From the NCBI GenBank assembly GCA_016000045.1, contig JAECQY010000001.1, positions 169,194 through 233,193 on the forward strand: a DNA stretch of 64,000 nt, in the 5' to 3' direction. Under the pieces are notes generated by a model. It saw only the letters and a program-made list of their open reading frames with translations. It ran no database searches and had not been told where the DNA came from. Of the stretch, positions 1-57,476 are shown in pieces. Positions within the stretch are counted from its first letter, which is position 1. Each line of letters opens with the position of its first letter. The translations under genes and the position numbers were made by a program. Source of the stretch: Myxococcaceae bacterium. GTDB taxonomy: Bacteria > Myxococcota > UBA727 > JABDBI01.

Positions 1-504
1 CCCAACACATTCATCTCTCCTATCCCAACAAAGAAGTTTCCGAGACCCTGTTGGAATTTGGCTCCTCTCCTGACAGGCAAAGACTCTATAGCTCCTTGGC
101 AAATACTGGCTGAAGATCTGAAAGGCGCTTTGAGCGCCAACAACTTGGATGATTTTTGTTCTCGCCTCAAACCTTTCTTTGCCGATATCCCCTACGATTT
201 GCCTATTCCCTTAGAACGCTATTACCAAACTGTGTTCTACATGCTGCTCAAATTTATGGGAGCCGAGATTATGACCGAAGAAAGAACCAATATGGGTCGA
301 ATCGACGCGGTTCTCCAGACGCCTACGCACACCTACGTGGTGGAGCTCAAAATGGGCCGATCTGCTCAGGAAGCCTTGCAGCAAATCCGGCAAAAACAAT
401 ACGCTCAAAAATACCAACTCTCAGGCAAATTGGTTACGGCATTAGGGCTAGCATTCGATCCACAAACTAAAAACATTGTAGATCAAGCCTGGCAAGTGCT
501 GTAG
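1..504 (+). CDS. C-terminal fragment (5' end outside the window) of an AAA-ATPase-like family protein; PD-(D/E)XK nuclease domain (PDDEXK_9-like)
   Basis: The reading frame is open from base 1. Motif GRIDAVLQTPTHTYVVELK fits the D...ExK core of PD-(D/E)XK nucleases. Two other members of the same family lie at 23.5-26.7 kb. Confidence 0.6.
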   Translation, partial: PNTFISPIPTKKFPRPCWNLAPLLTGKDSIAPWQILAEDLKGALSANNLDDFCSRLKPFFADIPYDLPIPLERYYQTVFYMLLKFMGAEIMTEERTNMGRIDAVLQTPTHTYVVELKMGRSAQEALQQIRQKQYAQKYQLSGKLVTALGLAFDPQTKNIVDQAWQVL

Positions 505-595
505 CGATTGGCGAAATCGGATGTTTCTGGATGGATCTCCCCTCTCCTGTTGGGAGAGGGTTCCTCGTATGAGAACAGCCCTCCTCGACGTTATC

Positions 596-1094
596 CAGCG
601 GCGCGTCTATTGCAACAGAAGCAGGCATCTGATTTCTTGAAACATACGACTTGGCGATTGCTGTATTTCAGACGACCCCGTGAGGGGTTCAGGTGCCACA
701 GCCCAGCCAGAGGAGGTTGCTGAAAGCAACAGACGCTGGGCTGGGTTGTTGGGGTTATTGGGATTATTTGGATTATGGGTTATCTAGGCCATTTAGGTTA
801 TCCCGACATTTGTTGGCTCGACCACATAGAGAATATGCTCACAAAGGGAGTTGTGATAAAAGCCACGATTGTTTGGACCGATTGGGTGAATCCATCCGAT
901 TGTCTGAATGAATTCGGTTGGTGAGTCCATCCGGTTGTTTCAACCCAGCCCAGCGTCTGTTGCTTTCAGCAACCTCCTCTGGCTGGGCTGTGGCACCTGA
1001 ACCCCTCACGGGGTTGTCTGAAATACAGCGATCGCCAAGTCGTATGTTTCAAGAAATCAGATGCCTGCTCCTGTTGGGAGAGACGCGCTGGGTG
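596..1094. repeat. Large imperfect inverted repeat. Core arms 621-745 and 944-1068 differ at about 2 of 125 positions; a ~197-bp spacer lies between them, with nested hairpins and short direct repeats.
   Basis: The reverse complement of 944-1068 is near-identical to 621-745. The spacer carries direct repeats ggtgaatccatccgattgt and ggtgagtccatccggttgt. There is no transposase ORF; the small ORFs 508-1133 are judged spurious. Confidence 0.7.
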
Positions 1095-1195
1095 ATTTCG
1101 CGATTGCCCTGCGCAAGATACCGGCCCTCTTGAATCCTTGTGAATACGTCGGTACATACCACAAGTCTCAAAATTTATACTGTTTGGAATCGAAA

Positions 1196-2656
1196 ATGAA
1201 ATTATTTCTTTGGGCAATAGTCGGAGTGAGTTGTTTGGGTAGGGCTGAGCCGAAGCCTAATTTTCCCTGTGATTTGCCAATGCTTCGATTCTCCCTTTCA
1301 TCTGTTTCGGAGCAAGCACTCCCAGAACCTGCGATTCCAGCGGTGGTGACCACGGTGACGCAAAATGGGGGTGCTGTATCTTCCGTTGTGAGCGCGATCA
1401 CGGCGGTTGGCCCGACTCAAGTTGCTCAGACGGCTCGCTCTGGATTAAGCCTGGATTTACTCGCTTGCGACGACGGCCTGCCCATGCAGGAAGGTCCGCT
1501 GGATTGGGCAGATAGCCCCACCCAGCTATCTTTGGGTGAGGGTTCGCTTCAGTACCATACTGGAGCTGTTCTGGGGAACTGGGTTTTGATGGTGGGAGCG
1601 GTGGGCGTATGGAGTGGGGTTGCTTACAAGCTAGGTCCTGAGGCGGCGCAGTTTCCCGGGAGTTTGATACTGCCGGCCCTGCTTTTGATAGTTCCCACCG
1701 TGACTTCTTCGTTCACGCTGGCGCGAGATGGGGACAAGTCTTTACAAACAGCCGGCTCGGTCTCGATCCTGGTATCGCTGGCCAGCATCGCTGCGGTTGG
1801 CGTCAAGGTATGCCCTCGGTTTTTTAAGGCGCGCTGGGAAGACTATGAGCATGAATGGGTCGATTTATCCAACGCGCAAAGAGGTTGGGTGGCACGGTAC
1901 GGCGAGTTGTTTGATACCTACGCCGCGGGCCGACAAGGCTATATCGTGGTTGAATTGTTGACTTCGGTAGGCGTGGGGACTCTTAAATCGTATCAGATTT
2001 TAGAACAAAACTGCCAGGAGTTGTTATGGGCAGGCATGGTTGTTTACGATGCTTATGCCATTTCGCAATTGGCTTTGCGTCCCAATCGCAATCGTCATGC
2101 TCAAATTTTTTACAGCGCCATCGCGACACTTCAAGCGACAGCCCTGACCTTGCAAGCCATTGTTTCCGTCTCCGCTTCCGAAGAAACACAAAGCAAAGTG
2201 AAAACCGTGACTCAATCGGTCGTGGTGGTGACAGAGTATATGATGATGATTAAGACCTTGTTTGACATGGGTTTGCGCGTCAAGAGTTGGTACGATCGAT
2301 ACTACCGGCTCCATTCGGTTTCACTTCCGAAGCAGTCTGCTGGGTTGTCCACCCCGCAGCAAAATACGCCGTTGGAGGAGATGCTATCGGTTGCTTTCGT
2401 ACCGCCTTCGCAAGATACGTTGGTGGGTGAAATGCTACCCCTTGCTTGTGTACCGCTTTCGCTGGACTCCTTGGAGCCTATTGTTCCAGAGGCTTTGTCT
2501 CCGAGCGCATCGGTGTCGGGCGAAGAAAATTTGAAAGCGACTTTAGTCAGCGACTTTGGTTTCTTGGTCGAACAGAGCTCTTCAGTGGCTCCTGTGCCCA
2601 AAAGTTTAAATGAGGTCATTGCCGAACTGATGCAACAGGAGAGTGATCTTGAATAA
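1196..2656 (+). CDS. Hypothetical membrane/secreted protein with N-terminal signal peptide and TM segments; Pro/Ser-rich C-terminus containing a ~45-bp internal tandem duplication
   Basis: Long ORF with signal-like start MKLFLWAIVGVSCLG. Hydrophobic segments are present. No family recognised. Its end overlaps the start of the downstream DUF1566 gene. Confidence 0.4.
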   Translation: MKLFLWAIVGVSCLGRAEPKPNFPCDLPMLRFSLSSVSEQALPEPAIPAVVTTVTQNGGAVSSVVSAITAVGPTQVAQTARSGLSLDLLACDDGLPMQEGPLDWADSPTQLSLGEGSLQYHTGAVLGNWVLMVGAVGVWSGVAYKLGPEAAQFPGSLILPALLLIVPTVTSSFTLARDGDKSLQTAGSVSILVSLASIAAVGVKVCPRFFKARWEDYEHEWVDLSNAQRGWVARYGELFDTYAAGRQGYIVVELLTSVGVGTLKSYQILEQNCQELLWAGMVVYDAYAISQLALRPNRNRHAQIFYSAIATLQATALTLQAIVSVSASEETQSKVKTVTQSVVVVTEYMMMIKTLFDMGLRVKSWYDRYYRLHSVSLPKQSAGLSTPQQNTPLEEMLSVAFVPPSQDTLVGEMLPLACVPLSLDSLEPIVPEALSPSASVSGEENLKATLVSDFGFLVEQSSSVAPVPKSLNEVIAELMQQESDLE

Positions 2657-4046
2657 ACAATGGCTGTTTTGTTTGTTGTGGTTGTCCCGTTTTGGGTTGG
2701 CTGGATATTTCAATGTGAGCGAAGTGCAGGACTCCATGGCGAATGAAGCGCTTTTTCAGCTGATTTCGAATCAGACCTGGACTGTGAACCAACAACAAGC
2801 ATTGATGTCGACGGGTCTTCGCGCTCTATTTCAATCGGTTTCGCCGCAAATCAAGTCGATGCCCGATTACACCGGGCAGTTTGTCGCAAATTGTTCGATT
2901 TTTCTGAATCTGCGCATCGAAGGAGTCGCTTGTGACGTGACGTCGGTCTCGACAGCGATGAAGCCGAGCGGTTATGATTTGAACTCGGCCCTTCGCTTGC
3001 CTCTGGAATACGCGACGCAGATCACACAAAGCGACATCATCTTGGTCAATCTTTACGCGGATTGGAGAGGTAAGACGACGGCTTACTCGGAGCAATATAC
3101 GCTTGGTCCATTTGCTCGAATGCGAACTTGTACGTCAACGCTCAGCGTGACGGATTCACCCGAAACCCCAAGCGGTTTGCTGAGTTCGAGTGAGAGCCTC
3201 GAAGAGTCTCAAACAGCCGCCCCGAGTGTGTCCAAACCCTTCAGTCTTAGTCCCAATGTTCTGGTTTCGGATTCTCACAGCATGAGTTCTACGAGTTCTG
3301 GCAGTAGTGCGTCGGTATCACTTTTGGTTTCTTCAAGCGCGAGTTCATCCGGCTGGTTCAGCGAGTCCAAAAGCCTGACCGAAGCCTTATCACTCAGCCA
3401 GAGTTCAAGTATTCAGGTTTCGGACTCTCGCAGCATGAGTTCTACGAGTTCTGGCAGCAGTGTATCAGCATCGCTTTGGGTTTCTTCAAGCGCGAGTTCG
3501 TCGGGTTGGTTCAGCGAGTCTCAAAGCTTGAGCGAAGCCTTATCACCGAGCCAAAGCTTCAGCAAAATCCTTTCGGGGACTTGTAGTCCGAGTGTGTGGG
3601 GCAGTTGCTTGGGCAATTCTACGGGTTTGGCTTATATTTGGTCTGGTAGTGCCATTTATTCAAACCCAACCAATCAAGCATCGCGTTATACGACCCCTGC
3701 GTCCGGGGTTGTAGGAGATAGTTTAACCGGTTTGCAGTGGGAGCAAGCCGCAAGTAGTAGCACGATGACTTGGAGTGCAGCAGGGACCTATTGTGCGGGC
3801 CGTACGACGGGTGGATTGAGCGGCTGGCGTTTGCCAAACGTGGATGAGCTTCAAACTTTAGTGGACTACACCACCTCCAGCCCAAGTATTAACTCGGCCG
3901 CATTTCCCAGTACACCGAGTAACTATTTTTGGACCTCGACCCTCTACCAACCGAACCCAACTTCCGCGTGGCTCGTCTATTTCTTTCGTGGCGACGTCGG
4001 CTTCAGTGATATGAGCAATAATGGCTTTGTCCGTTGCGCGCGTTGA
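2643..4046 (+). CDS. Secreted DUF1566 (Lcl C-terminal domain, C-type-lectin-like fold) protein with Ser-rich linker; candidate DGR variable protein 1
   Basis: C-terminal domain carries the WRLP..EL motif and the ...FWTST...VRCAR terminus typical of DUF1566. An N-terminal module is shared with the ORFs at 52139 and 54905. The gene lies 27 bp upstream of a DGR-type RT. Confidence 0.7.
   Translation: MILNKQWLFCLLWLSRFGLAGYFNVSEVQDSMANEALFQLISNQTWTVNQQQALMSTGLRALFQSVSPQIKSMPDYTGQFVANCSIFLNLRIEGVACDVTSVSTAMKPSGYDLNSALRLPLEYATQITQSDIILVNLYADWRGKTTAYSEQYTLGPFARMRTCTSTLSVTDSPETPSGLLSSSESLEESQTAAPSVSKPFSLSPNVLVSDSHSMSSTSSGSSASVSLLVSSSASSSGWFSESKSLTEALSLSQSSSIQVSDSRSMSSTSSGSSVSASLWVSSSASSSGWFSESQSLSEALSPSQSFSKILSGTCSPSVWGSCLGNSTGLAYIWSGSAIYSNPTNQASRYTTPASGVVGDSLTGLQWEQAASSSTMTWSAAGTYCAGRTTGGLSGWRLPNVDELQTLVDYTTSSPSINSAAFPSTPSNYFWTSTLYQPNPTSAWLVYFFRGDVGFSDMSNNGFVRCAR
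3264..3570 (+). repeat. Tandem duplication, 2 x 153 bp (51 aa), encoding a Ser-rich linker inside the DUF1566 gene
   Basis: Two near-identical units start with gtttcggaytctcrcagcatgagttctacgagttctggcag. In protein they read SMSSTSSGSS...SSSGWFSES. Confidence 0.75.
3921..4046 (+). other. Candidate DGR variable region VR-A (3' end of the DUF1566 gene)
   Basis: Compared with the paralogous segment 5951-6076, differences fall in codon positions 1-2 with the third base kept in 15 of 18 differing codons. Upstream of the block, differences between the two genes are ordinary synonymous drift. Confidence 0.55.
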
Positions 4047-4073
4047 GGATGGGAGAATGAACAGGATGGGACT

Positions 4074-5621
4074 GTGAAAAAAGGTTGGCCAACTTGGGAA
4101 AGCGTCGATCGAGCTGCGGCTGCTTGCGCCAAGCGCAAGCGAAGCAGACCCGATGCGATTGTTTTTCGGGCCCGCTACACAGAAGAGGTGCTGGACTTGT
4201 GCCAGCGCATTCGATCGGGAGAATACCGGCCCTCCTCGGGGACGGTTTTCGTGACCGATCGCCCAAAGACTCGTGAAATACACGCCTCTCATTATCGAGA
4301 TCGAGTGGTTCACCACCTGCTCCATGACCTGATTGAACCGCACTTTGAACAATCGTTTATTAAAGATTCGTACGCTTGTCGTAAAGGCAAAGGTTCTCAT
4401 GCTGCGGTAGAAGCCTTGCAAAAACACATGCAGCGAGCGACCTGTTATGGCAAAATACGTGCTTATGCCCTGCATCTCGATATTAGAAGTTTTTTCTTCT
4501 CCATTCATAAACCCACCTTGCTGGCTATTTTGGAGTCGAAGCAATGGTTTCGTGAGCAGGCGGAATTGCGGCATTTGACCACTTTGGTGATCAATCACCC
4601 CACTGCGCTGCATGCGAAGCCCTTGGGGCCACCAAGCTCGTTTGAACGAATTCCTCCGTTGAAGCGGCTTGGAGCTTTGGGGGAGGATCGAGGACTCCCC
4701 ATCGGCAATCTGACCAGCCAGTTGTTTGCGAATATCTACTTGGATGTCTTGGACCAGATGATCAAGCGTACTTTAGGGGCTCAATATTACGTCCGGTATT
4801 CAGATGATCTGGTCTTGTTGCACCGCGATGCGGATCAGCTCGCGAGCTGGAAGCAACAAATCATCGAGTTTTTGCAGCAAAGGCTAAAACTGGAGACGCA
4901 TGAGAAAGCGCCAATTCATCCGGTGAGCGAAGGTGTCGATTTTGTCGGGTATGTCATTCGTCCTGCTTACAAATTGTGCCGTGCACGCGTGATTCGGCAC
5001 GCTCACCAACGTATTACCGAGCTCGAAAAACCGCTACACCCTGAAGAACGAGAAGGTTATCAGTTCTGGCGAGTACGTCACAAGGACATCGAGGCTTTGC
5101 GTGCTTGTTGGGCAAGTTATGCGGGTCATTTGAAACATGCCAGTGCTTATCGAGTGGCTCAAAAGTTGCTCAAGCGGCACCCTATCTCTCAATTCTATTT
5201 GCGCTTTGAGATTGCGAAGCATGGAATTTCTGTGGCTCGGCGATTTGCTTTGCCTAAGATTGAGTCTTGTTGGAATCACCAAATCCATTCGTTGCATCAG
5301 AGCGTCTCGAAACCAGCGCTCCGATCGGCAGAGGGTTCTGCGGTGTTGTTGGTTCAAGTGGGTCGTTATGCCGAGTGTCCTTTGCAGAAGGATGCAGAGC
5401 GTTTGGAACTTCGTCGGGGCTTACCGTGGCGTCGCTTGCCTGAGATCATCGACCGAGCGGTTCAAAAGGGTCTGAAAGTGGCAGTGGCTGTTGAGTTTAA
5501 AAAATGCACAGGGCGTATTAGAGCTCGTTATTTGGCGTACTGGGTAGAACCCGTGGCGCGGCCGGTACTGCTTTCTGAAGGTTCTCCCAAGGCTGTGCAG
5601 TTGGAATTCGGGTTTTCATGA
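4074..5621 (+). CDS. Reverse transcriptase, diversity-generating retroelement (DGR) type
   Basis: RT motifs are present in order: RPKTREI, RDRVVHHLL, YACRKGKGSHAAV, LHLDIRSFF, LPIGNLTSQLFANIYLD (the IGxxxSQ substitution typical of DGR RTs), YVRYSDDLVLL and GVDFVGYVI. There is a ~200-aa C-terminal extension. The stop overlaps the next start (ATGA). Confidence 0.85.
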   Translation: MKKGWPTWESVDRAAAACAKRKRSRPDAIVFRARYTEEVLDLCQRIRSGEYRPSSGTVFVTDRPKTREIHASHYRDRVVHHLLHDLIEPHFEQSFIKDSYACRKGKGSHAAVEALQKHMQRATCYGKIRAYALHLDIRSFFFSIHKPTLLAILESKQWFREQAELRHLTTLVINHPTALHAKPLGPPSSFERIPPLKRLGALGEDRGLPIGNLTSQLFANIYLDVLDQMIKRTLGAQYYVRYSDDLVLLHRDADQLASWKQQIIEFLQQRLKLETHEKAPIHPVSEGVDFVGYVIRPAYKLCRARVIRHAHQRITELEKPLHPEEREGYQFWRVRHKDIEALRACWASYAGHLKHASAYRVAQKLLKRHPISQFYLRFEIAKHGISVARRFALPKIESCWNHQIHSLHQSVSKPALRSAEGSAVLLVQVGRYAECPLQKDAERLELRRGLPWRRLPEIIDRAVQKGLKVAVAVEFKKCTGRIRARYLAYWVEPVARPVLLSEGSPKAVQLEFGFS

Positions 5622-6076
5622 AATTTGCACTAGGTTGCCGAATCGCTTTACTCTTGAATATTGGCTTGCTCGCTTGGCCCTTGCTGGCCATTTGTCGTTA
5701 TACCAATGAAAATGGAGCAGCTCTGACCCCGAGTGATCAGACCGTTCGAGACAGCGTGACAGGGCTAGTCTGGCAAAGAACTCAAGCTGCTTCGACCATG
5801 TCTCAAACGTCTGCAGCCAGTTACTGCGCGTCTTTGAATCTCAATGGCTTTTCATTCCGTTTACCGACGGTTCGTGAATTGTCCAGCCTCGTGGACTTCA
5901 ATACCTCCAGTCCCAGCATTGACTCAACGGCTTTTCCGGGAACCTCTTCTAACTATTTTTGGACCTCGACTACTTACCAACCGATCCCAACTTACGCGTG
6001 GGTCGTCGATTTCTATGGTGGCTTCGTCGACTTCAATGCTATGGGCGGTGATAACTCTGTCCGTTGCGCGCGCTGA
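5618..6076 (+). CDS. Small secreted/lipoprotein-like protein consisting of a single DUF1566 domain; candidate DGR variable protein 2
   Basis: Signal peptide MKFALGCRIALLLNIGLLAWPLLAIC, then a DUF1566 domain (FRLPTVRELSSL...FWTST...VRCAR). The start is translationally coupled to the RT stop. Confidence 0.65.
   Translation: MKFALGCRIALLLNIGLLAWPLLAICRYTNENGAALTPSDQTVRDSVTGLVWQRTQAASTMSQTSAASYCASLNLNGFSFRLPTVRELSSLVDFNTSSPSIDSTAFPGTSSNYFWTSTTYQPIPTYAWVVDFYGGFVDFNAMGGDNSVRCAR
5951..6076 (+). other. Candidate DGR variable region VR-B
   Basis: See VR-A. It shares the invariant flanks aactatttttggacctcgac and gtccgttgcgcgcgYtgaggatggga. Confidence 0.5.
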
Positions 6077-6185
6077 GGATGGGATGTTGACCCTTTGCCT
6101 CTTCGACCTTTTAAAAAGGAAACGGAAGACAAGGGGGGCGAGACAAGCTCATGATGGACGATACTCTCTGCCAATCGCTTGTCGT

Positions 6186-7142
6186 TTAAGGCAATTGAGC
6201 CGGGTCAATTAATCCAGCTTCGAGCTGCTCAATTTGCTCTCGCGGTAACTCGGTGGCGGTTGCGATAACAGACTTATCGAGCCCCAACTTTAAGAGTTTC
6301 ACCGCTGTTTCTACCTTGGCCTCTGCTTTGCCTTTCTCCAATCCGATAGCTTTGCCTCTTTCGAGTCCGACGGCCTCTCCTTCTGCTTGCCCCTGCGCCC
6401 GTCCTTTTGCTTCAGCGCAGAGATAGTAGTCTTGTTCTGAGACGCTTTGTTTGAGGTAGCGCCAATACTCGTTGCGTTCGGCATCGGTCATCTTGAGGAC
6501 TTGAAGGCGTTCAGCCACTTTGTCCATGCCTTTGGACTGAAAGTCTGCTCGGATTTGTTCGTTTTTGGCCATGTAAAGCCACTCATCGATTTCGCTTTGC
6601 ACTTCATCGTTAAATTTTGGAATGCAAATGAAAAAATATTCTGGAAACACATTGTAGATATCCAAGTTTTTCGAAGCGCGAGTGGACAGATGCAGCGATA
6701 CCGGGTTTTGGGTGTCTATTTCATGAATAATCGTTTGCCCAAAGGCCAAGGCGTGGTTCATCTGAGGGACTTCAAAATACAACAAGCTGATGTGAAAGAC
6801 TTTCTTAATCTGGGTAAAATCTTGACCTAACTCGAGACTGTCGATGATTCTGCGGGAAGTGTTAAAACAGGCTTTATGAGCAAAGTGGGTGGTATAAGAA
6901 CGTTCAATCTCAACCATGTATTTGACACCATTGGCGTCTTCTACCACCAAGTCTGCGATGCTTCGTTTTTGATTTTTGGCTTCTTTCTGGCTTTCTGGAT
7001 CGATTAAGGCCTTAATCTTAACGGGTGGGTAACCCTCGGTGGCTAAAAGAGCGGATAAGAAACTTTCAATAATGTCATAATCGGCCTGGTTTTTGAGCAG
7101 GTACTTAATGGCATAATCGAAACTGACTAAGGGCTTCTCCAT
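6186..7142 (-). CDS. Rpn/PDDEXK_2-family PD-(D/E)XK nuclease (recombination-promoting nuclease / putative transposase family)
   Basis: Motif DLVVEDANGVKYMVEIE fits the nuclease core. The C-terminal charged repeat region (AEAKGRAQGQAEGEA...) is typical of this family. Confidence 0.55.
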   Translation of the reverse strand: MEKPLVSFDYAIKYLLKNQADYDIIESFLSALLATEGYPPVKIKALIDPESQKEAKNQKRSIADLVVEDANGVKYMVEIERSYTTHFAHKACFNTSRRIIDSLELGQDFTQIKKVFHISLLYFEVPQMNHALAFGQTIIHEIDTQNPVSLHLSTRASKNLDIYNVFPEYFFICIPKFNDEVQSEIDEWLYMAKNEQIRADFQSKGMDKVAERLQVLKMTDAERNEYWRYLKQSVSEQDYYLCAEAKGRAQGQAEGEAVGLERGKAIGLEKGKAEAKVETAVKLLKLGLDKSVIATATELPREQIEQLEAGLIDPAQLP

Positions 7143-7204
7143 AGGTACTGTATAGCATATTCCGGGATTGAACTCAAGATGAGGAGCTTTTGTGAAACCC
7201 AGGC

Positions 7205-9982
7205 CTAGCCGTTTTTTAAGCGATTGAGGCTGTCGGAGATCTGGCCTTCGCGTTCTGCTAAGAGCGACTGCTGTTTGCGATATTGCTCTAGAATCTCGAC
7301 TGGCGCTTTCGCAATAAAGCCTGGGCTTTGAAGCCGCTGTTCGAGACCTTTTCGCTCTTGAGTGATTTTCTCAAGCTCTTTTTGAAGCCGACGGGTTTCG
7401 GTCGCTAAATCGAGCAAGCCTTCCAGGGGAAGCACGATATCGTAGAGGCCATTCGTGTGAGTGGCCGCAAAGCGAGGAGTCGTGTAGTCTTGCCTTGTTC
7501 GGAAATCGACCGAATCCAAAAGAGCCAAGCGAAGCAGAGCTTCTTTTTGCTCGGCCAAGAAGTCCAAGTCGGCTGATTGCTCTGCTAGAATCACGGCTGA
7601 AAGACGCTTTTGAGCGGGCAAGTTCGATTCTTGTCTGGCGTTTCGAATCATGCCAATGACTTCTTGCAATTGAGCAAAGCTTTTTTCAGCCGCTGGGTCG
7701 AGATAAGCTCGATTGGCAACCGGAAATGAGGCAAAAGAACAAGTCCCTTCGGTGCCAGGCAAATGAGACCAAATTTCTTCGGAGACAAAGGGACAAAAAG
7801 GGTGCAAGAGCCGGACGCTGGTGGAGACCAGCTCAACCAAGATCGAACGAACGGCGGGAGAATCCATGCGAATCTTCGCAAGCTCGATGTACCAGTCGCA
7901 GACCTCGGTCCAGAAGAATTGATAAAGCGCATCGGAAGCGACGCTGAATTCGTAATGAGACAGGCTTTTGTCCACTTGCTCGATGACCTGTTGAAGGCGC
8001 GATAAAATAAAACGGTCTTCCAGCATGAAGAGCTCTTGGACTTGCGTGAGGGGCAGAATCGGCTCTGGGCCGATGCGCATGAGCACAAAGCGGGTGGCGT
8101 TCCAGACTTTATTCAAAAAGGCTCGATACCCAGAAACTCGAGGAATGGCGAGTTTGACATCTTGGCCTTGGCCCGACAGCATCGCCAGGCTAAGACGTAG
8201 ACCGTCTGCACCGGAGGCAGGAATTCCGTCTGGGTAATCTTTTTTAAGGCCTTCTAAAACGTGATTGAGCATTTTAGGAGGAACCGGGTAATTTTTGGTT
8301 TTGACCAACAAGTCTTCCAGAGAAATCCCTTCGATGACATCGATGGGGTCGATGGCATTGCCCAGAGATTTCGACATTTTTCGGCCGTGAGCGTCTCGTA
8401 CCATGGCATGCAAATAGATATCCCGAAACGGAACTTGCCCCATAAAATGCAAGCCAAACATCATCATGCGGGCCACCCAAAAGAAAAGAATGTCAAACCC
8501 CGTTTCCAGCACGCTGGTGGGGTAGAAGGTTTTCAGGTCGCTGGTTTCATGAGGCCAACCGAGTGTTGAGAACGGCCACAAAGCGGAAGAAAACCACGTA
8601 TCCAAGACGTCTTCTTCTTGGCGATAGCGCTCTGGGCCAAATTTTTTGACGAGATCCTCACGGCTCGCGACGGAAATTTCACGCATTTCAGCATCGCTTA
8701 AGGAGTTCAAATCTCGATCCCCAAGCTTTTGCAGGTCGTAATAGACCGGAATGGGGTGTCCCCACCAAAGTTGACGCGAAATGCACCAATCTTGGATGTT
8801 CAAGAGAAAATGGTCGTAGGTTTTTTTCCAGCTTGCAGGCAAAATCCGAGTTTCGCCATTCTCAACCGCTTGATAGGCTTTTTGAGCCATCGAGTCCATG
8901 CGAATAAAGTATTGTTTGCTGAGCATGGGCTCAATATCTTCCCCAGAACGTGAGGATACCGAGACTTTGTGTTCGATGCTTTGAGCCCCTCGAACAAGAC
9001 CCAACGCTTCTAAATCTTTTTTAATTTGGCTGCGCGCTTCTTGCCGAGTGAGGCCTTGGTAGGAACCTCCTTGATGGTTCACCTTGCCGTCTCGTGTGAA
9101 AATCGATATTTCCGCTAAACCATGGCGTTTCCCTGCGGCGTAGTCGTTTGGATCGTGCGCAGGCGTCATTTTGACCGCTCCGGTTCCAAAATCCACGTCA
9201 ACCAGAGTGTCCGCGATGATCGGAATCACGCGGGATTCGAAAAACGGATGCCTGACCTGACGGCCTTGCAAATGTTTGTATCGAGGGTCGTCTGGATGAA
9301 CCGCAATGGCGGTGTCGCCCAGCATGGTTTCGGGTCGGGTGGTTGCGACAACGATTTCTTCTTCGAGGCCGATGATTGGATAGGCAAAATGGAACAGCTC
9401 TCCTGTGCGGGCCACGTGCTCGACTTCTTCGTCGCTGAGCGCTGTCTGAGAACCCGGATCCCAGTTCACCAGGCGCTCTCCTCGGTAGATGAGGCCCTCG
9501 TCCCAAAGTCGCACAAAGGCTTCGTTAACGGCTTCGCAGAGTTCGGGATCCAGCGTGAATTTATGCCGGTTCCAATCCGCGGAAGCCCCCAACTGCTTCA
9601 TTTGGTGAACAATGGTTTTGCCGTTTTGGTCAACCCATTGCCAAATTTTTTTCACAAATTCAGGACGACCGATTTCGTGGCGGGTTTTGCCTTCTTGTTT
9701 GAAGACTTCGCGCTCAACGACCGTTTGCGTCGCGATGCCCGCATGATCGGTTCCTGGGAGCCAAAGGGTCTTTCGCCCTTTCATGCGATGATAACGTACC
9801 AAAATATCTTGCAGTGTCACGAAAAGCGCATGCCCATTGTGAAGAACGCCTGTCACGTTGGGAGGCGGCATCATGACGGTGTAAGGCACACCGGTTTTTT
9901 CATCGGGTGAAAAGAAACCGGGCTTGTCAAAGAGTGCGCGCCATTTTAGCTCAAGGGTCTTTGCGTCGTATTTCGGATCCAT
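7205..9982 (-). CDS. valS: Valyl-tRNA synthetase
   Basis: HIGH-like PPPNVTGVLHNGHAL and KMSKS motifs are present. Length is 925 aa with a C-terminal coiled coil. Confidence 0.95.
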   Translation of the reverse strand: MDPKYDAKTLELKWRALFDKPGFFSPDEKTGVPYTVMMPPPNVTGVLHNGHALFVTLQDILVRYHRMKGRKTLWLPGTDHAGIATQTVVEREVFKQEGKTRHEIGRPEFVKKIWQWVDQNGKTIVHQMKQLGASADWNRHKFTLDPELCEAVNEAFVRLWDEGLIYRGERLVNWDPGSQTALSDEEVEHVARTGELFHFAYPIIGLEEEIVVATTRPETMLGDTAIAVHPDDPRYKHLQGRQVRHPFFESRVIPIIADTLVDVDFGTGAVKMTPAHDPNDYAAGKRHGLAEISIFTRDGKVNHQGGSYQGLTRQEARSQIKKDLEALGLVRGAQSIEHKVSVSSRSGEDIEPMLSKQYFIRMDSMAQKAYQAVENGETRILPASWKKTYDHFLLNIQDWCISRQLWWGHPIPVYYDLQKLGDRDLNSLSDAEMREISVASREDLVKKFGPERYRQEEDVLDTWFSSALWPFSTLGWPHETSDLKTFYPTSVLETGFDILFFWVARMMMFGLHFMGQVPFRDIYLHAMVRDAHGRKMSKSLGNAIDPIDVIEGISLEDLLVKTKNYPVPPKMLNHVLEGLKKDYPDGIPASGADGLRLSLAMLSGQGQDVKLAIPRVSGYRAFLNKVWNATRFVLMRIGPEPILPLTQVQELFMLEDRFILSRLQQVIEQVDKSLSHYEFSVASDALYQFFWTEVCDWYIELAKIRMDSPAVRSILVELVSTSVRLLHPFCPFVSEEIWSHLPGTEGTCSFASFPVANRAYLDPAAEKSFAQLQEVIGMIRNARQESNLPAQKRLSAVILAEQSADLDFLAEQKEALLRLALLDSVDFRTRQDYTTPRFAATHTNGLYDIVLPLEGLLDLATETRRLQKELEKITQERKGLEQRLQSPGFIAKAPVEILEQYRKQQSLLAEREGQISDSLNRLKNG

Positions 9983-10022
9983 GGGGTCTTTAAGATAGCA
10001 CGCTCAGCTTAGGAGGAAAGAC

Positions 10023-10556
10023 ATGTTTCGAGTTCCGGGTAGACTTCTGGCTTTCATGTTCATCGCGCTATCCAGCATGGCGGAAAAATTCGAACTTTCA
10101 GAAGGCAGCATGAGCGCTGGCGGGCAGGCCATGCTGAACTATTCAAGTCCGGATATCAGCGACTGGAATGCCGATTATTTGAATTTAGGAGTGGCCGTAA
10201 ACGGGGGCTTTTTCTTTTTGAAGAATTTGGCTGGGGTGGTCGATGCACAACTGACGGGCCAAATTTCCGATAGAATGGAATCCAAGCGGCGCTATCAATT
10301 TGCAACCGGAATCTGGTATGCTGTGGATACGAAGAGCAACTATTACCCCTATGTTCAGCTGCTGGGGTACGTTTCGAACGTCGCCAGTGGCTGGTCTGCT
10401 GGACTGATGCCTTCACTTGGATTATTGGTAGGGCTCTCTGCGCAGCTGGCGCTCGATTTTGGGTTTATCTCTCGGATCGATTTTGCGATTTCGCGGGAAG
10501 GGTCGACGGCCCTTGAGTTGGGAACTGGTTTTGTCGGGATTCGAGCGTTTTTCTAG
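10023..10556 (+). CDS. Putative small outer-membrane beta-barrel protein
   Basis: Signal peptide, alternating hydrophobic residues, and a C-terminal ...GIRAFF ending in an aromatic residue. Confidence 0.4.
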   Translation: MFRVPGRLLAFMFIALSSMAEKFELSEGSMSAGGQAMLNYSSPDISDWNADYLNLGVAVNGGFFFLKNLAGVVDAQLTGQISDRMESKRRYQFATGIWYAVDTKSNYYPYVQLLGYVSNVASGWSAGLMPSLGLLVGLSAQLALDFGFISRIDFAISREGSTALELGTGFVGIRAFF

Positions 10557-10569
10557 AGGAGTTGCATAC

Positions 10570-11211
10570 ATGGTACTCAGAGGCTTTATTTGGCTGCTGC
10601 CCGCAGCGTTGGCGGTTGCGCAAGACAAGCGTGTGCAGCCTTTCACGGAGCCGCCCAAAATAGATTGGACGACCGAGCAAAAATCAAAACTTGAAAAAGG
10701 CGAACTCGTCTTCATCGAACGGCAAGAAGACCGGCCTGGTTCACGGTATTATCGAGAGGGAAGTGCGGGCTTTCGGCTGGATGCGAGCTTTGAGCGGGTT
10801 TGGAAAGTGCTCGGCGATTTTGAAAAATACCCGGATTGGGCGTATAAAATCGCATCGGCTGAAGACTATGAACCCGCGCAGAAGAAAGACGGCCACCGGT
10901 ATTTGGAGTTTAAGGCAGCGGTGGTTGGAAAGAAGTATTACGTCGATCACGACCTTTCGAACCAAGAAAAGGGTTGGATTGTTTGGCAAACCGATCACGC
11001 GAAAGCCAATGATTGTGTGTTGGATACAGCGGGAGTGTGGCGCTTAGAACCGGTCAAAAATACGCTTGAAAAAACGGATGTGTTCTATTCGGGAAAAGTG
11101 GTCTTAAACAAGCTTTGTGCCAAGGGGTTTCTGGGGATGGGTGGCTTCAATGGCCAAGATATGGCGAAGCAGATGCATCAAGAGCTGAAGAAGCGCGTAT
11201 CGTCCAAATGA
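10570..11211 (+). CDS. SRPBCC (START/polyketide-cyclase-like) family protein
   Basis: Motif RVWKVLGDFEKYPDW. A paralog follows immediately with a 4-nt overlap. Confidence 0.45.
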   Translation: MVLRGFIWLLPAALAVAQDKRVQPFTEPPKIDWTTEQKSKLEKGELVFIERQEDRPGSRYYREGSAGFRLDASFERVWKVLGDFEKYPDWAYKIASAEDYEPAQKKDGHRYLEFKAAVVGKKYYVDHDLSNQEKGWIVWQTDHAKANDCVLDTAGVWRLEPVKNTLEKTDVFYSGKVVLNKLCAKGFLGMGGFNGQDMAKQMHQELKKRVSSK

Positions 11212-11885
11212 TGGCTCAAAAAAGCCTACGGAATCTGATCTGGGTTGGCTTTGGGTGGATCGCGTCCTTTGGGCTTTGGGCGGAATTGAAACCGTACGAA
11301 GCAGAACCGCCGGATATCGTCCTCACCGCCCCACAGCAAGCAAATATGGCAGCGGGGAAGCTGGTCTATGTGATGGATCATACGCTGGGCCAGCTCAAAG
11401 AAGTGGCGATCGCTTTTCGAGTGAAAGCGTCTCCTGAGAAAGTTTGGCGTGTTTTGAGTGACTTTGGTCAGTATCCCCAATGGTCGTACCGTGTTGGAAG
11501 TGCGGTGGGACAATTTTTGGGGAATGATCACTGGTTGGTCGACTTTACAACCCATCTCAAGCAACACTATTATCTCGTTCACCATGTTCCCATGAAAGAT
11601 TGGCTGAGCTGGCATACCGATCATTCTCAATTGAACGATTGCGTGTTGGATACGGTTGGATTTTGGCGCGTGAAAGCGGTCGAGGGTTTCGATCATCTTT
11701 CCGATGTATTTTGGTACGGGAGGATGCGTTTCAGCAGACTGTGTGCGAACGGAATTTTTGAAATCGGAGGATTTGATGCGCGCAGCATGGGGCAGATCAT
11801 TTACAAAAACCTTCGTTTGCAGGCAGAGTCTCTGTTGATTTCTGGCCCTGATCCTAAGCACACCGTTTTGCCGATCGAGCCATAA
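11208..11885 (+). CDS. SRPBCC family protein (tandem paralog)
   Basis: KVWRVLSDFGQYPQWSY. About 35% identical to the upstream ORF with the same domain layout. Confidence 0.45.
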   Translation: MMAQKSLRNLIWVGFGWIASFGLWAELKPYEAEPPDIVLTAPQQANMAAGKLVYVMDHTLGQLKEVAIAFRVKASPEKVWRVLSDFGQYPQWSYRVGSAVGQFLGNDHWLVDFTTHLKQHYYLVHHVPMKDWLSWHTDHSQLNDCVLDTVGFWRVKAVEGFDHLSDVFWYGRMRFSRLCANGIFEIGGFDARSMGQIIYKNLRLQAESLLISGPDPKHTVLPIEP

Positions 11886-12088
11886 CTTGCTACGTTGGCT
11901 GCGCGCCTCTTCGAAATCGTAGATGTCAGGTAACTGCATAAAGAATAGAAGTGTAGCACACGAGGCTGTAGCTCAAATTATCCAAACGTAGGAGATAGCA
12001 AGCTTGAATGAGTGCCGAAGGCGATAGCTGCTTTCGGCCTGAACTAGAAAGCGATTTCATTCTTTGGGTGGATCATGTTTTGATTTTC

Positions 12089-12180
12089 TTAGCAATAAGC
12101 TCCAAAGTTTACGAAAGTAATTTAGAAGCTCATTTATTACAGTGCGTCTAAACGCCATAATTTATTTTGGCGGGCATCGC
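12089..12180. repeat. Intergenic repeat family A, copy 1 (~92 nt)
   Basis: About 85% identical to 57477-57570: gcaataagctccaaagtttacgRaagtaatt...gcgtctaaacgccataatttattttgRcggg. Confidence 0.6.
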
Positions 12181-12376
12181 TGTTGAACCCGGACAATTTC
12201 TTGACTGGTTATCTAAAGAAGAGTAGAGATTTTATCAGATTGTTGACGTTGCTAAAAAAACCAGTTTTTCTAATTCTCGATCTGGATAAAATCTAGTCCT
12301 ATAGTGGGGTAGATTACGATTTTTCCAACAGAATCAAAAGCTGTTTTATATTTCCTAGGGGAAGGTGAGGTGTCAT

Positions 12377-13969
12377 ATGGTTATTCTATTTATTCTTCTG
12401 TTCTGTCTTTCTCCTCTGGCTGAAGCTCAGCTTTGGACCCTTCAAAATGCAAATCAGCCCTATGTATGGTGTGATTCTTACAAGAATCATCGTTGGGATG
12501 ATTGGTCTTGGTCTACCTCTGATCCCGAGGAAGACAAATGCCGCTCTCGTCTCTGGAAATTGAAGGTGGAAAATTTCGGGGCCTCTAACAACCCTTGTTT
12601 TAAGGAAATATGGGGATTGCTGGAGCCTCAGTCTGGGACCGTGTCTTTTGTCAATGTGTCCATGGCCTATATTCAAGACATGTCTATTGCTAAAAGGCTT
12701 GTTGCCTTGGCTGGAAATGGCGCAAAGATTTTTGTGCAGCAAAATGCGAAACCAGAGCAAAACAGTGACGGACAAGATAACTTCTGCGCTATTAAGGTTC
12801 GAGAATTTTTTAAATCGAATGAAGGAATCCCCAACTTCAGTTGGGCTCTTAAAAATCTTGGTGAGTACAACCTATATCACCCCAAAATTCTTCAGGTGAC
12901 CCATGTTGATGAAGGAGGCGTTCAGCAGCATTTTCTGCTCCAGGGGTCGTATAATTTTAACCCTGCGGCTTGGAAAAGCAATGTGGAGGTGATTACGATT
13001 CTTAAAAATTCTGGAAACCCACCCCTGAACCCTCTTCTTGAGCAACCATCTGAGACTTTAGGAGAGTGGACGGTGCTTCATCCTTTGTTGGATTGTCTTC
13101 CTCAGAATGTCCGGCCCTTGGCATGGAATGATCTTCATAGTGCAGCCTCTTACCCGCCAGGTAACGCTGTATCGCCTGGTTACAAAAATAATCGCTGTTT
13201 TAGAATGATATATAACTTGTTAAATCCAGAAGATAAAACACATATTTCTGTAGAAGTGAAAACAGGATATTTCGAAGACAAAAAGCTCGCTCAAATGCTA
13301 AAAACACTTATTGACCAGGGGGTTTCCGTTTCTGTAGAGGCGGATCAATCGAAAATATCAGGCATTGATTCGGAAGCGATTCGAACAGAAATCAATGAGC
13401 TAAACGCGAAAAAAAAGAACCCGGATGATCCGAAGTTAAAACGCTTGATTTCTGAACTCAAAAAAATTGATGCAATTCAATACATCAAGACTTTGTTGGG
13501 TGAAAATGCTACATTCTACGATAAATTTCCTTCGGGTGGCATTTACCACCCTAAATATATGAAGGTTATGTTTGAGAAAAAGGAAGCCGATGAAAAGACA
13601 TACGTTTATACCTACATCATCGTAGGGTCTTATAACTTTACAGTGGCTGCGTGGCGATTGAACCAAGAGTCTATGACGGTTCTCCTGAAGAAGGAAGAAA
13701 AGAAGAAGCAAGAAAAACCTGCTGTATTGTCAGAAGCCCTGGCTGCCACCGATGCAAAGAAACTAGAGGCAGAATTCGAAAAACTAGAGATTCCATCGTT
13801 TTCTCAAGGCGTCGTTTCTGGACGACAGAGTACTCGGTCCTTGGATAAGAGTTCTCAGTTGGAGGATGTTGATTCCTTTCTGCCAATGCCGATGGGCACA
13901 GGAATTATCGGAGAGCAGCAAAAACTTGGGGGTCTTCTAGAATTTCTTGCCTCGAATAGAATGCTATGA
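12377..13969 (+). CDS. Secreted phospholipase-D-superfamily (HKD motif) protein
   Basis: Signal peptide MVILFILLFCLSPLAEA. Two HKD-like motifs: HPKILQVTHVDEGG...GSYNFN and HPKYMKVM...VGSYNFT. The gene sits in an AT-rich, low-GC islet. Confidence 0.5.
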   Translation: MVILFILLFCLSPLAEAQLWTLQNANQPYVWCDSYKNHRWDDWSWSTSDPEEDKCRSRLWKLKVENFGASNNPCFKEIWGLLEPQSGTVSFVNVSMAYIQDMSIAKRLVALAGNGAKIFVQQNAKPEQNSDGQDNFCAIKVREFFKSNEGIPNFSWALKNLGEYNLYHPKILQVTHVDEGGVQQHFLLQGSYNFNPAAWKSNVEVITILKNSGNPPLNPLLEQPSETLGEWTVLHPLLDCLPQNVRPLAWNDLHSAASYPPGNAVSPGYKNNRCFRMIYNLLNPEDKTHISVEVKTGYFEDKKLAQMLKTLIDQGVSVSVEADQSKISGIDSEAIRTEINELNAKKKNPDDPKLKRLISELKKIDAIQYIKTLLGENATFYDKFPSGGIYHPKYMKVMFEKKEADEKTYVYTYIIVGSYNFTVAAWRLNQESMTVLLKKEEKKKQEKPAVLSEALAATDAKKLEAEFEKLEIPSFSQGVVSGRQSTRSLDKSSQLEDVDSFLPMPMGTGIIGEQQKLGGLLEFLASNRML

Positions 13970-52138: not shown

Positions 52139-54502
52139 TTGCGAATGGCGATTAAGAAAAATCTAAAAACCCAAGCACGGTGCTTTAGGCAAGCAAAGCT
52201 GCTGGTATTCTTAATTTGGGGACAAACCGCTGTTGCTGCCTGGCTTAATCAAAGCCAGGTAACGAATGCCGTGGCGAATCAGGCACTAACCCAGCTTGTT
52301 TCGAACCAGACATTGCCTGCCGCCCAGCAAAAACAATGGTTCTCGACCGGATTGAAGGCCTTGTTTGCCGAGCTAACTCCGGCGATTCAAGCGATGCCAG
52401 ATTATACGGGCCAGTTTGTAGCCAATTGTTCCATTTTCATGAACACTCACATCGAGCAGGTTTTGTGCGAGATCAACTCCACGACTGCTTTGGTGAGACC
52501 CGAGAGTTGCGGACAGAGTTCCTTACTTCCTTTGGAATATGAGCATCAAATTACCGAAAGCGCGATTTTGCTGGTGAGTTTTTACGCTGATTGGACGCGT
52601 AAGACGTCGTTATCCTCCGAATCTTATGCCGTTCGTTTGTTCGATCGGATGCCAACGTGCACCGCGTCTGCGAGCGTTTCAGAGACAGGGCCAATACTCA
52701 GCCAAACCTTGAGCCCTACTGAGTCTACCTCTTTGAATTTTACGATAAGCCCAAGTGCTCCTGTGGTTTGGAACCCCGAGTGGGCAAATTGGCAGATAAC
52801 GACCGGTGTCTATCAAGACAACGCCAATCAAACGGGCCGCTACCTTGAATCGGTTCCAGGAGTTATCACGGATCAAATGACGGGTTTGCAGTGGCAAAAA
52901 GTAGGGAGTGCGCCTGCGGGTAATTGGACGGCTGCGCAGGCCTATTGCGCTAATTTGTTTGAGTCTGGGTTTGGGGATTGGCGTTTGCCCGCGCACGTGG
53001 AACTTCAGACTTTGGTGGATTATACGATGGATTGCGCTGGTCCCAGCGTGGATCTGAATTTTTTCCCAGGCGCTCAAACCAGCAGTTACTATTGGTCCTC
53101 GGACGCTTTACAGGGTTACCCTGGCAGTGCTTGGTGGGTGAGCTACGGTAGTAGTGGTGCCTATTACGCAGGCCTCGTTTGCAGCCAGGGTTATGGTGCT
53201 TGTTCTTCAGTGCCTGCGAGCGGCTTTGCCCGTTGTGTGCGACCCTCGTTGGCAGATCGAGAGATAGATCGTTACACCTTTAATAGCACGCAGGTTCTGG
53301 ACACCGTAACGGGCTTGATTTGGCAGCGAACGGTTTCTGGAACTTATAACTGGGGTGCAGCGCAGGCTTATTGTGCGGGTTTGAATCTGGACGGTTTGAT
53401 CTGGCGTCTTCCGAATGTTAAAGAGTTATCGACGCTTCTGGATGTTCGCATAGCATCTCCGGGTCCGACGATCAATACGACGGCTTTTCCGAGTACACCT
53501 CAGGCTGGGTTTTGGACATCAACGCCTTGTTCGTGTGCGTCTTCATCCGTCGCGTGGCTGGTCGATTTCATCTATGGTTCTGTGTCCTACACTGGCATGG
53601 GCACTTTTGACTATGTTCGTTGTGTGCGCTCTCCTCAGGTTTACAATCCCGAGTGGGCGAATTGGCAAGTGACAACGGGCGTCTATCGAGACAACGCTAA
53701 TCAAACGGGCCGCTACCTTGAATCGGTTCCAGGAGTTATCACGGATCAAATGACGGGTTTGCAGTGGCAGAAAGTAGTGAGTGCGCCTGCTGGCAATTGG
53801 ACGGCTGCGCAAGCCTATTGTGCTAATTTGTTTGAGTCTGGGTTTGGAGACTGGCGCTTGCCCACGCACGTAGAACTTCAGACTTTGGTGGATTATACGA
53901 TCAGTTGCACTGGTCCCAGCGTGGATCAGGATTTTTTCCCAGGTACTCAAACCAGCAGTTACTATTGGTCCTCCGACGCTTTGCAGGGTTACCCTGGAAG
54001 TGCTTGGTGGGTGAGTTACGGCACCGGTGCCTATTACGCGGGCCTTGTTTGCAGCCAGGGCTATGGCGTCGCTTGTCCTTCGGTGCCCGCGAGCGGTTTT
54101 GCCCGTTGTGTGCGACCTTCGTCGGCAGAACGAGAGGAGGATCGTTATGCCTTCAACAGCACCCAGGTGCTGGACACCGTGACGGGCTTAATTTGGCAAC
54201 GGATGGTTTCCGGAACTTACAGCTGGAGTGCAGCGCAGGCTTATTGTACGGGTTTAAATCTGGACGGTTTGAGCTGGCGCCTTCCGAATGTCAAAGAGCT
54301 ATCGACGCTTCTGGATGTTCGCATGGCATCTCCGGGTCCGACGATCAATACGACGGCTTTTCCGAGTACACCGCAGGGCGGCTTTTGGACATCAACGCTT
54401 TATACGTGTTCCTCATCCAACGCCTGGGCGGTCTTTTTCGATAATGGCTACGTCGCCTTCAATGATATGAGCTCTTCTTACTGTGTCCGTTGCGCGCGTT
54501 GA
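52139..54502 (+). CDS. Large secreted protein with shared N-terminal module and four DUF1566 domains in two ~874-bp tandem units; candidate multi-VR DGR target
   Basis: Four WRLP..EL motifs. Units 52763-53636 and 53637-54502 are near-identical except at the tips of domains 2 and 4 (FWTST...VRCVR/VRCAR). Confidence 0.65.
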   Translation: MRMAIKKNLKTQARCFRQAKLLVFLIWGQTAVAAWLNQSQVTNAVANQALTQLVSNQTLPAAQQKQWFSTGLKALFAELTPAIQAMPDYTGQFVANCSIFMNTHIEQVLCEINSTTALVRPESCGQSSLLPLEYEHQITESAILLVSFYADWTRKTSLSSESYAVRLFDRMPTCTASASVSETGPILSQTLSPTESTSLNFTISPSAPVVWNPEWANWQITTGVYQDNANQTGRYLESVPGVITDQMTGLQWQKVGSAPAGNWTAAQAYCANLFESGFGDWRLPAHVELQTLVDYTMDCAGPSVDLNFFPGAQTSSYYWSSDALQGYPGSAWWVSYGSSGAYYAGLVCSQGYGACSSVPASGFARCVRPSLADREIDRYTFNSTQVLDTVTGLIWQRTVSGTYNWGAAQAYCAGLNLDGLIWRLPNVKELSTLLDVRIASPGPTINTTAFPSTPQAGFWTSTPCSCASSSVAWLVDFIYGSVSYTGMGTFDYVRCVRSPQVYNPEWANWQVTTGVYRDNANQTGRYLESVPGVITDQMTGLQWQKVVSAPAGNWTAAQAYCANLFESGFGDWRLPTHVELQTLVDYTISCTGPSVDQDFFPGTQTSSYYWSSDALQGYPGSAWWVSYGTGAYYAGLVCSQGYGVACPSVPASGFARCVRPSSAEREEDRYAFNSTQVLDTVTGLIWQRMVSGTYSWSAAQAYCTGLNLDGLSWRLPNVKELSTLLDVRMASPGPTINTTAFPSTPQGGFWTSTLYTCSSSNAWAVFFDNGYVAFNDMSSSYCVRCAR

Positions 54503-54540
54503 GGATGGGATGTTGATCCTTTGACTTTTGACCTTTTAAT

Positions 54541-54607
54541 AAAGAAAATGGAAGGCAGTAGGGCCCGAAATAGGCACTGGCTCGTTAGCTTCTGGGAAAG
54601 ATACGTT
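54541..54607. repeat. Intergenic repeat family B, copy 1 (~67 nt), downstream of a DUF1566 gene
   Basis: aaagaaaaYggaaggcagYagggYYcgaaataggcWctg...agcttSTgggaaagatacgtt. Second copy at 57570-57636; partial match at 6106-6125. Confidence 0.55.
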
Positions 54608-57445: not shown

Positions 57446-57476
57446 AGACGGGATTTTTACTTTTTATTTTTATAAA

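Follow-up and report, generated by a model that had tools for sequence, protein, structure and literature searches.

A probable relic of an avd-TR-RT diversity-generating retroelement in the genome of an uncultivated Myxococcaceae bacterium

The diversity-generating retroelement (DGR) of Bordetella phage BPP-1 consists of mtd, avd, a template repeat (TR) and brt, and in a reconstituted version of that system inactivation of bRT, Avd or TR brought retrohoming down to background (PMC12875486). The DGR of Legionella pneumophila, whose target is LdtA, was placed in 'category d', in which CLec2 variable repeats (VRs) overlap DUF1566 (Wu et al. 2018, PMC5758913). The present analysis concerns a locus related to both in a stretch of 64,000 nucleotides (referred to as the window) from a Myxococcaceae bacterium (assembly GCA_016000045.1, contig JAECQY010000001.1, positions 169,194 to 233,193), in which a DGR-type reverse transcriptase (RT) gene stands between two genes ending in a DUF1566/Lcl_C domain. 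The locus is probably a relic, in which a deletion between a VR and the TR removed avd together with the TR and left behind three orphan and probably frozen VRs. It is accordingly filed here as a deletion derivative of the avd-TR-RT, DUF1566/Lcl_C class and not as a complete DGR.

The comparison with the described systems is informative in both directions. Like the family to which the window locus belongs, BPP-1 has the order avd, TR, RT and a VR at the 3' end of its target gene, and the best structural relative of the window RT is 8ub7, presumably the Bordetella phage bRT, with motifs linked to adenine mutagenesis. In contrast to BPP-1, the target domain is Lcl_C and not Mtd, no GC-rich hairpin was found after the VRs of the window, the RT has an extra C-terminal domain, and neither TR nor avd is present. 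The Legionella DGR is like the window locus in that its target is surface-exposed and carries the VR in a C-terminal domain of DUF1566 type, in its use of avd and in having a MutS-related component; Legionella has this component as a separate MSL gene, the window as a MutS_I-like extension at the C-terminus of the RT. The Legionella cassette is complete with its TR, and the likeness is one of domain family, not of direct sequence comparison. Closest of all is the locus designated L002 (Myxococcaceae metagenome-assembled genome (MAG) ELA443, JBAXMC010000066.1) with its clade (L003, L004, L006, L090 and L092), which resembles the window in its RT, its neighbouring genes, the 3' end of its VRs and its types of flank; some members also share the small Lcl_C target gene after the RT. 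In the clade, bAvd and an AAY-rich TR, with adenine-specific TR/VR mismatches, separate the upstream target from the RT; in the window neither is present and the two genes abut.

The first evidence comes from the tips of the genes on either side of the RT. Target gene 1 (2643-4046; window coordinates and plus strand throughout unless stated otherwise) encodes 467 amino acids (called as 465 from 2649) with Lcl_C at residues 355-467 (E=1.4e-31), and target gene 2 (5618-6076), which overlaps the RT stop, encodes a protein of 152 amino acids with a signal peptide and one Lcl_C domain (E=9e-30). The original prediction had compared 3921-4046 with 5951-6076 by eye and described an identical 20-mer start, a common 3' end and 18 differing codons, 15 of them changed at positions 1 and 2 only, preceded by ordinary third-position drift. 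A gapless alignment of the 126 nt (42 codons) confirms this down to the individual codon pairs: both blocks begin with the identical 20-mer AACTATTTTTGGACCTCGAC and share the 3' end GTCCGTTGCGCGCGYTGA, the last 18 nt being common except for a single Y position, and 23 mismatches fall into 18 codons, in 15 of which the changes are confined to positions 1 and/or 2 and in two of which they are synonymous. Counted by codon position the mismatches are unevenly spread, with 9, 11 and 3 at positions 1, 2 and 3 (the probability of three or fewer of 23 at position 3 under an equal spread is 0.026). In the upstream parts of the two Lcl_C domains, 69 of 83 protein-aligned codons differ, 27 of them synonymously, with 38, 33 and 54 differences at the three positions (Fisher's test, positions 1 and 2 against 3, block against upstream, p=0.009), and in the 30 codons directly 5' of the blocks 24 differ, with 14 synonymous and 20 third-position changes. 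The third-position difference between the two targets thereby drops from 65% upstream to 7% in the block, and the switch lies exactly at 3921. Neither the 20-mer nor the 26-mer 3' end (the end together with its flank GGATGGGA) is expected by chance, the expectation in shuffles being zero. Blocks 1 and 2 appear from these patterns to be gene tips that were recently copied from one source and then altered at codon positions 1 and 2.

A third copy of the 3' end, which the original prediction had overlooked, extends this picture to a distant gene. The sequence GTCCGTTGCGCGCGYTGAGGATGGGA recurs at 54485-54510, at the end of a remote target (52139-54502) that encodes a protein of 787 amino acids (called as 785 from 52145) with four Lcl_C domains (E=1e-102); NCBI lists the exact protein, annotated as DUF1566, from a Myxococcaceae MAG. 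Its tip, block 3 (VR3, 54377-54510), carries the 26-nt 3' end and a VR-type flank and is homologous to block 1 ('VR1', 3921-4054) and block 2 (VR2, 5951-6084) from about 54418 onwards; all three blocks share the 26-nt end, and all form the last approximately 40 codons of Lcl_C (PF07603/DUF1566) domains, whose fold is C-type-lectin-like and tolerant of variation. In a codon alignment of blocks 1-3 the same codons differ, and their third base, C or T, is kept. The cognate TR not being in the window, the adenine test used the TRs of the relatives L002, L003, L004 and L006: in the 66-nt core, A stands in three or all four of these TRs at 23 of the 25 variable columns, as against 4 of the 41 invariant ones (Fisher p=1.3e-11). 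The template that is obtained by setting A at each variable column (pattern TGGAANGTCAAYTTCAAYAAYGGCAAYGTC...GTCCGTTGCGCGCG, of which GTCCGTTGCGCGCG is the shared 3' end) contains 36% A, whereas the blocks contain 16-18%. In full it reads AAC GCA TGG AAA GTC AAT TTC AAT AAT GGC AAC GTC GAC TTC AAT GAT ATG AGC AAT AAT AAC TAT GTC CGT TGC GCG CGA TGA. Since this reconstructed template closely resembles the real TRs of the relatives, the adenine-mutagenesis footprint in blocks 1-3, that is, the diversification of AAY codons at their adenines that had been proposed for the first two blocks, is well supported at the sequence level.

The gene between blocks 1 and 2 (4074-5621, 515 amino acids, Pfam RVT_1) is by homology a DGR-type reverse transcriptase and the only RT in the window. 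Compared with solved structures, its best match is the 328-amino-acid RT of 8ub7 (E=7e-35), with group II intron RTs at 6e-11 or worse, and its motifs IGNLTSQLFANIY (IGNLTSQLFAN) and YSDD align to IGSLTSQLFANVY and YMDD of 8ub7. The identification of 8ub7 as the Bordetella phage bRT is an assumption made here, the search result itself saying 'Reverse transcriptase'. Over its full length, C-terminal extension included, the RT is 62% identical to that of the complete DGR in L002. The extension of about 170 amino acids (5094-5621, residues ~341-515) aligns to the MutS domain I (MutS_I) region of relatives such as P0057, the window's LLVQVGRYAEC standing opposite LLVQVGSFYEC in relatives that are 36-44% identical, while the window extension itself stays below a match to Pfam MutS_I. 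A MutS_I-like extension has been noted for three DGR RTs (Wu et al. 2018, PMC5758913). In relatives, many RT gene calls include an N-terminal Lcl_C fragment that is the TR read in frame (P0041). The original prediction had the RT lying between two DUF1566 genes, which holds in that the RT is of the DGR type and both genes end in Lcl_C. Its reading of the locus as a DGR stands as far as RT and footprint are concerned, whereas a TR and avd were not found in the 64-kb window; likewise, the footprint is real in both supposed VRs flanking the RT, but block 1 is no ordinary VR, as it occupies the slot of the TR.

This last point becomes apparent from a survey of 53 related loci that were run, together with the window, through one script. 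A TR with an adenine-specific TR/VR pair lies directly upstream of the RT in 42 of the 53 and just 3' of it in two, and in the 53 no open frame that ends in the last 200 nt before the RT exceeds 210 codons, where the window has one of 471 codons. The closest relative, L002, shows in order a membrane protein, an Lcl_C target, bAvd, TR and RT, and its TR pairs with two VRs whose mismatches lie at adenines in 21 of 23 and 19 of 21 cases. The upstream target of L002 contains an in-frame TGA at 5951-5953 inside the VR where the TR has TGG (a G>A change at a non-adenine site), and either a pseudogene or an error in the MAG may lie behind it. The bAvd-TR-RT core of L002 recurs in L003, L004, L006, L089, L090, L091 and L092, bAvd being present in L002, L003, L004, L006 and L089-L093, and a small Lcl_C gene follows the RT immediately in L003, L090, L092 and L088, in which this downstream position is a proven VR-bearing target position. 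The order avd, TR, RT was defined as architecture B1 (Wu et al. 2018, PMC5758913); the relatives have it, while the window shows target, RT, target. Set against the syntenic series of membrane protein, target, avd, TR, RT and small Lcl_C gene, the window is missing exactly avd and TR.

The flanks of the blocks show the same. Aligned with L002, the window is homologous at the nucleotide level from 4047 onwards, immediately behind the stop of target 1, and on the L002 side this point lies directly 3' of the TR. Block 1 is followed by GGATGGGAGAATGAACAGG and then, 27 nt after the target-1 stop, by the RT start; the whole repeat-to-RT spacer (4047-4073), GGATGGGAGAATGAACAGGATGGGACT, matches the L002 TR flank GGATGGGAGAATGAGAAGGAGCGGGGT as well as the TR flanks of L003 and L006. 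Before the RT start the TR flanks of the relatives read GATGGGAGAATGA (L002), GATGGGAGAAAC (L003) and GATGGGAAAGGAGAATGA (L006), with the pattern GATGGGA(G/A), and the TR ends roughly 15-30 nt 5' of the RT start in L002, L003, L004 and L006 (in L002 about 36 nt if counted from the in-frame stop of the TR). The VR flank of the relatives, in contrast, is GACGGG followed by phased TTGAC/TTTGAC repeats, for instance GGATGGGATGTTGAC in L088. Blocks 2 and 3 have this VR type, unlike block 1, and continue with GGATGGGATGTTGAY CCTTTG..., the flank of block 2, TGAGGATGGGATGTTGACC, being of the same type as that of the L088 VR. Block 1 thus has a position equivalent to that of the relatives' TR, to judge by these alignments, although with 18% A and its footprint it is VR-like in composition.

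In this family the VRs are then followed by TTGAC or TTTGAC(C) repeats phased about 8-10 nt apart and not by a GC-rich hairpin as in BPP-1. They lie at 6077-6115 and 54503-54540 in the window and at 6040-6080 in L002, 7245-7300 in L004, 7255-7300 in L006 and 880-920 in L088; they are absent after block 1, and no hairpin 3' of the VRs in the window or the relatives scored better than shuffled controls. The phased flank may be the target-recognition element of the family.

Of the 249-kb contig, searches for the missing parts covered the 64 kb of the window; in addition they covered a single further contig of small size. Both strands of the window were scanned without gaps and searched by Smith-Waterman, each time with tolerance for adenine changes, and no TR was returned; apart from the three blocks themselves, the only sequences recovered were paralogous domain ends, three in number, and the best scores outside the VRs were at background. 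Exact and 3-mismatch searches with the 5' 20-mer and the 3' 26-mer likewise returned only the three blocks and paralogous domain ends, and the TR/VR pair-finder, which detects a pair in 44 of the 53 relatives, found none in the window. avd occurs in 74% of DGRs and in every close relative examined. A tblastn search of the window with the L002 Avd gave nothing better than E=1.1. In the same sample, no avd for the window cassette came to light among the Logan-derived homologues of the L002 Avd that were checked (P0141 and P0143, both from other runs; P0135, P0151 and P0152 were left out). A Logan search for DNA beyond the window edge yielded just a 5.9-kb contig inside the window, and metagenome_contigs and viral_contigs contained no exact match to a 25-mer from the shared 3' end. 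Among candidates within the window, no block can have served another as TR, the mismatches lying at each of the four donor bases with A accounting for 24-33%, and two pairs of non-coding repeats (D6/D7; 12078-12179 / 57467-57568 and 54541-54607 / 57570-57636) have no similarity to the VRs. These repeats are 83-84% identical within pairs; they occur 3' of the large Lcl_C genes and, in one case, in an unrelated intergenic region.

The window thus corresponds to the canonical cassette minus VR flank, avd and TR body, so that a single deletion between VR and TR explains its layout. The ancestral locus would have been a DGR of the avd-TR-RT family in a Myxococcaceae MAG, diversifying the Lcl_C tips of secreted or surface proteins, and each of the blocks at 3921-4054, 5951-6084 and 54377-54510 would have been written by adenine-mutagenised cDNA from one AAY-rich TR. 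That the blocks differ almost only at positions 1 and 2 of about 15 codons, with near-identical third positions and 3' ends, would be due to this common template. One deletion between direct repeats, the VR at the end of target 1 and the TR, would then have removed the VR flank, avd and the TR, by recombination or by replication slippage. Because the template-adenine positions of block 1 are all mutated up to its last variable codon, TTT at 4026-4028, the crossover would fall into the shared 26 nt at 4029-4054, and block 1 would be a fusion product of VR and TR. The event would have left the RT without template and Avd in cis and the three VRs orphaned and probably frozen; the RT frame being intact, the deletion would be recent, or the RT would have been kept for another reason. 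The footprint, the type of the RT, the lack of TR and avd in the window, the equivalence of block 1 to the TR in position and the synteny are observed; the deletion mechanism, the crossover site and the present inactivity are inferred. By analogy with BPP-1, where retrohoming needs bRT, Avd and TR, the window cassette on its own should be unable to diversify its targets. No literature report of a natural VR x TR deletion was found, and TR-VR recombination was called rare in one paper on a reconstituted system.

Whether the junction is genuine can be judged from other assemblies, which at the same time reveal a second DGR. The Logan contig L001 (SRR9332771), an independent assembly of 5,924 nt, matches window 1040-6963 without a difference, spans blocks 1 and 2 with the RT between them and is unbranched at the junction, and two NCBI MAGs have identical versions of target 1, the RT, target 2, the 846-amino-acid protein described below and the VR3-bearing end. 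The lack of VR differences between these assemblies argues, weakly, against current activity, since they may come from the same or related samples. The same run, SRR9332771, contains on another contig L003, a DGR with bAvd, TR, RT and a small Lcl_C gene (DGR-B), whose Logan contigs begin and end exactly at its repeat ends. As the accession numbers of its RT (MBH2006910.1) and the window RT (MBH2005894.1) are about 1000 apart, L003 and the window probably come from the same MAG. DGR-B leaves a trace in the window itself: a second four-Lcl_C gene (54905-57445, 846 amino acids, Pfam E=4e-107) ends in VR4 (57350-57448), which over 99 nt departs from the L003 TR at 17 positions, 16 being adenines in that TR, and whose 3' end is unlike that of blocks 1-3. 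VR4 is by this alignment a variable repeat templated by DGR-B, which thus has three or more targets, the end of the 846-amino-acid protein being a remote one. As a donor of blocks 1-3 the TR of DGR-B was rejected (16-17 non-adenine mismatches), and the domain-2 ends of the two large genes (~53537 and ~56480), considered as VRs, show 42 mismatches to it, about half of them non-adenine.

Several observations weigh against the reading of the locus as a deletion relic. No decay is apparent in the RT, which has its full length and departs from only 3 of 104 columns without variation among 13 relatives, a number inside the family range of 0-7; VR2 and VR3 retain the downstream flank typical of the family; the absence of a TR/VR pair is not unheard of, as 9 of the 53 relatives have none in the fetched DNA; 26 nt is short for a crossover by homologous recombination; and the word 'frozen' draws on the identity of assemblies from possibly the same or related samples. 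The intact RT, the flanks of VR2 and VR3 and the nine relatives without a pair also speak for an intact but split DGR, in which TR and avd lie elsewhere in the genome, outside the window, the RT diversifies the three VRs in trans and block 1 is an ordinary VR. Such an active system is unlikely, although targeting in trans, evident in VR4 with its template on another contig, is in its favour. Against it speak the arrangement in relatives, where the TR lies directly 5' of the RT in 42 of 53 and just downstream in two, the TR-type flank of block 1, only 27 nt from the RT start, the fact that by synteny exactly the avd-TR segment is missing, the unbranched course of the Logan contig at the junction, and the origin from other samples of the checked homologues of the closest relative's Avd.

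Before the next possibility is considered, a feature of the complete relatives has to be described. In all eight avd-TR-RT relatives (L002, L003, L004, L006 and L089-L092), the avd codons for (V/I)(M/I)(E/K)QV(V/M/I) are antisense-complementary to RT nucleotides ~233-255 over 12-23 bp of Watson-Crick or G-U pairs (in L002, 6388-6413 with 7030-7056). Some changes appear to be compensatory, namely avd GAG>AAG with RT CTC>CTT in L003 and avd ATG>ATA with RT CAT>TAT in L006. On pairing potential, the DGR RNA may form a putative long-range helix with the TR enclosed between its two strands; no literature report of the complementarity was found. The window keeps the RT half only (4310-4331, RT codons VVHHLLH).

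Block 1 could, secondly, serve both as a gene tip and as a coding TR for VR2 and VR3, perhaps also for itself, the Avd coming from the second DGR. Its position in the TR slot with the TR-type spacer kept would suit such a role, as would the DGR with avd in this run, which probably shares its MAG with the window. It is nevertheless very unlikely, considering that mismatches at the adenines of block 1 number just 7 of 23 for VR2 and 13 of 42 for VR3, that block 1 contains only 18% A, that the window lacks the avd half of the complementarity and that no relative has this layout. Also very unlikely is the notion that the fusion is a working arrangement, in which the tip of target 1, co-transcribed with the RT, is both template and product and Avd is borrowed from the second DGR; a self-templated DGR of this kind, if true, would ratchet adenines out of its own template.

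An assembly chimera is likewise very unlikely. In that case the assembler would have jumped from the true VR to the 3' flank of the TR through their shared 3' end, skipping avd and TR, and the true linkage would be that of GTCCGTTGCGCGCGTTGAGGATGGGATGTTGA to the body of target 1, with an avd-TR contig ending in GGATGGGAGAATGAACAGG. The identical 3' ends of VR and TR and the difficulty of assembling hypervariable repeats make such an error conceivable, and the second MAG does split the 787-amino-acid gene into partial pieces. The shared exact stretch is just 26 nt long, and a chimera is unlikely because L001 and the two NCBI MAGs give the same junction, unbranched in Logan, whereas Logan breaks at the repeats of DGR-B. 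Finally, divergence of paralogues under diversifying selection with gene conversion of their 3' ends, without any retroelement, can draw on the many Lcl_C paralogues in the window and the capacity of gene conversion to homogenise ends, but is hardly credible given that the variable sites coincide with the template adenines of four independent relatives (p ~1e-11), that the variable codons keep C or T as third base in the AAY pattern and that a DGR-type RT lies between the blocks.

The surroundings of the probable relic add some detail. Upstream lies a membrane protein gene (1061-2656) that belongs to no Pfam family and is 49% identical (E=4e-137) to L002 2815-4326, which in that closest relative has the same place upstream of the target gene. 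Target 1 itself has a signal-like N-terminus and a conserved N-domain, which shares 40% identity with the upstream target of L002, and closes with the Lcl_C domain; the linker between N-domain and Lcl_C, rich in Ser, is encoded by a 153-nt repeat in two tandem copies (3241-3546, 84% identity). Genes of the PD-(D/E)XK family stand on either side of the cassette, at 58-504 (PDDEXK_9) and, on the minus strand, at 6186-7142, the latter being an Rpn-family PDDEXK_2 'recombination-promoting nuclease/putative transposase', and they may be relevant to local rearrangements. Between the PDDEXK_9 gene fragment and the membrane-protein gene there is an inverted repeat (601-748 / 941-1088) of 148 nt with 96% complementarity that encloses 192 nt; the Logan contig L001 breaks inside it, and it could be a MITE-like or invertible element. 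A Rfam scan of 1-12500, the inverted repeat included, returned no family at its gathering score, and a promoter and terminator scan remained at background level.

Taken as a relic, the locus would be a clear natural example of the death of a DGR, in which TR and VR act as direct repeats and a single deletion takes both template and Avd. The known mechanism of DGRs is unchanged by the finding, and orphan VRs are a caution for annotation: an intact-looking RT flanked by "variable" genes would be missed by DGR finders, there being no TR/VR pair, while a reader could mistake it for an active system with two targets. The comparison also shows that a history of mutagenesis can be recognised without the cognate TR, when sister VRs are compared with the TRs of relatives. 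For the organism itself, a second DGR seems to operate in this genome and to hit a paralogous multi-domain lectin-like protein in trans, which points to a small network of diversified surface proteins in this uncultivated Myxococcaceae lineage.

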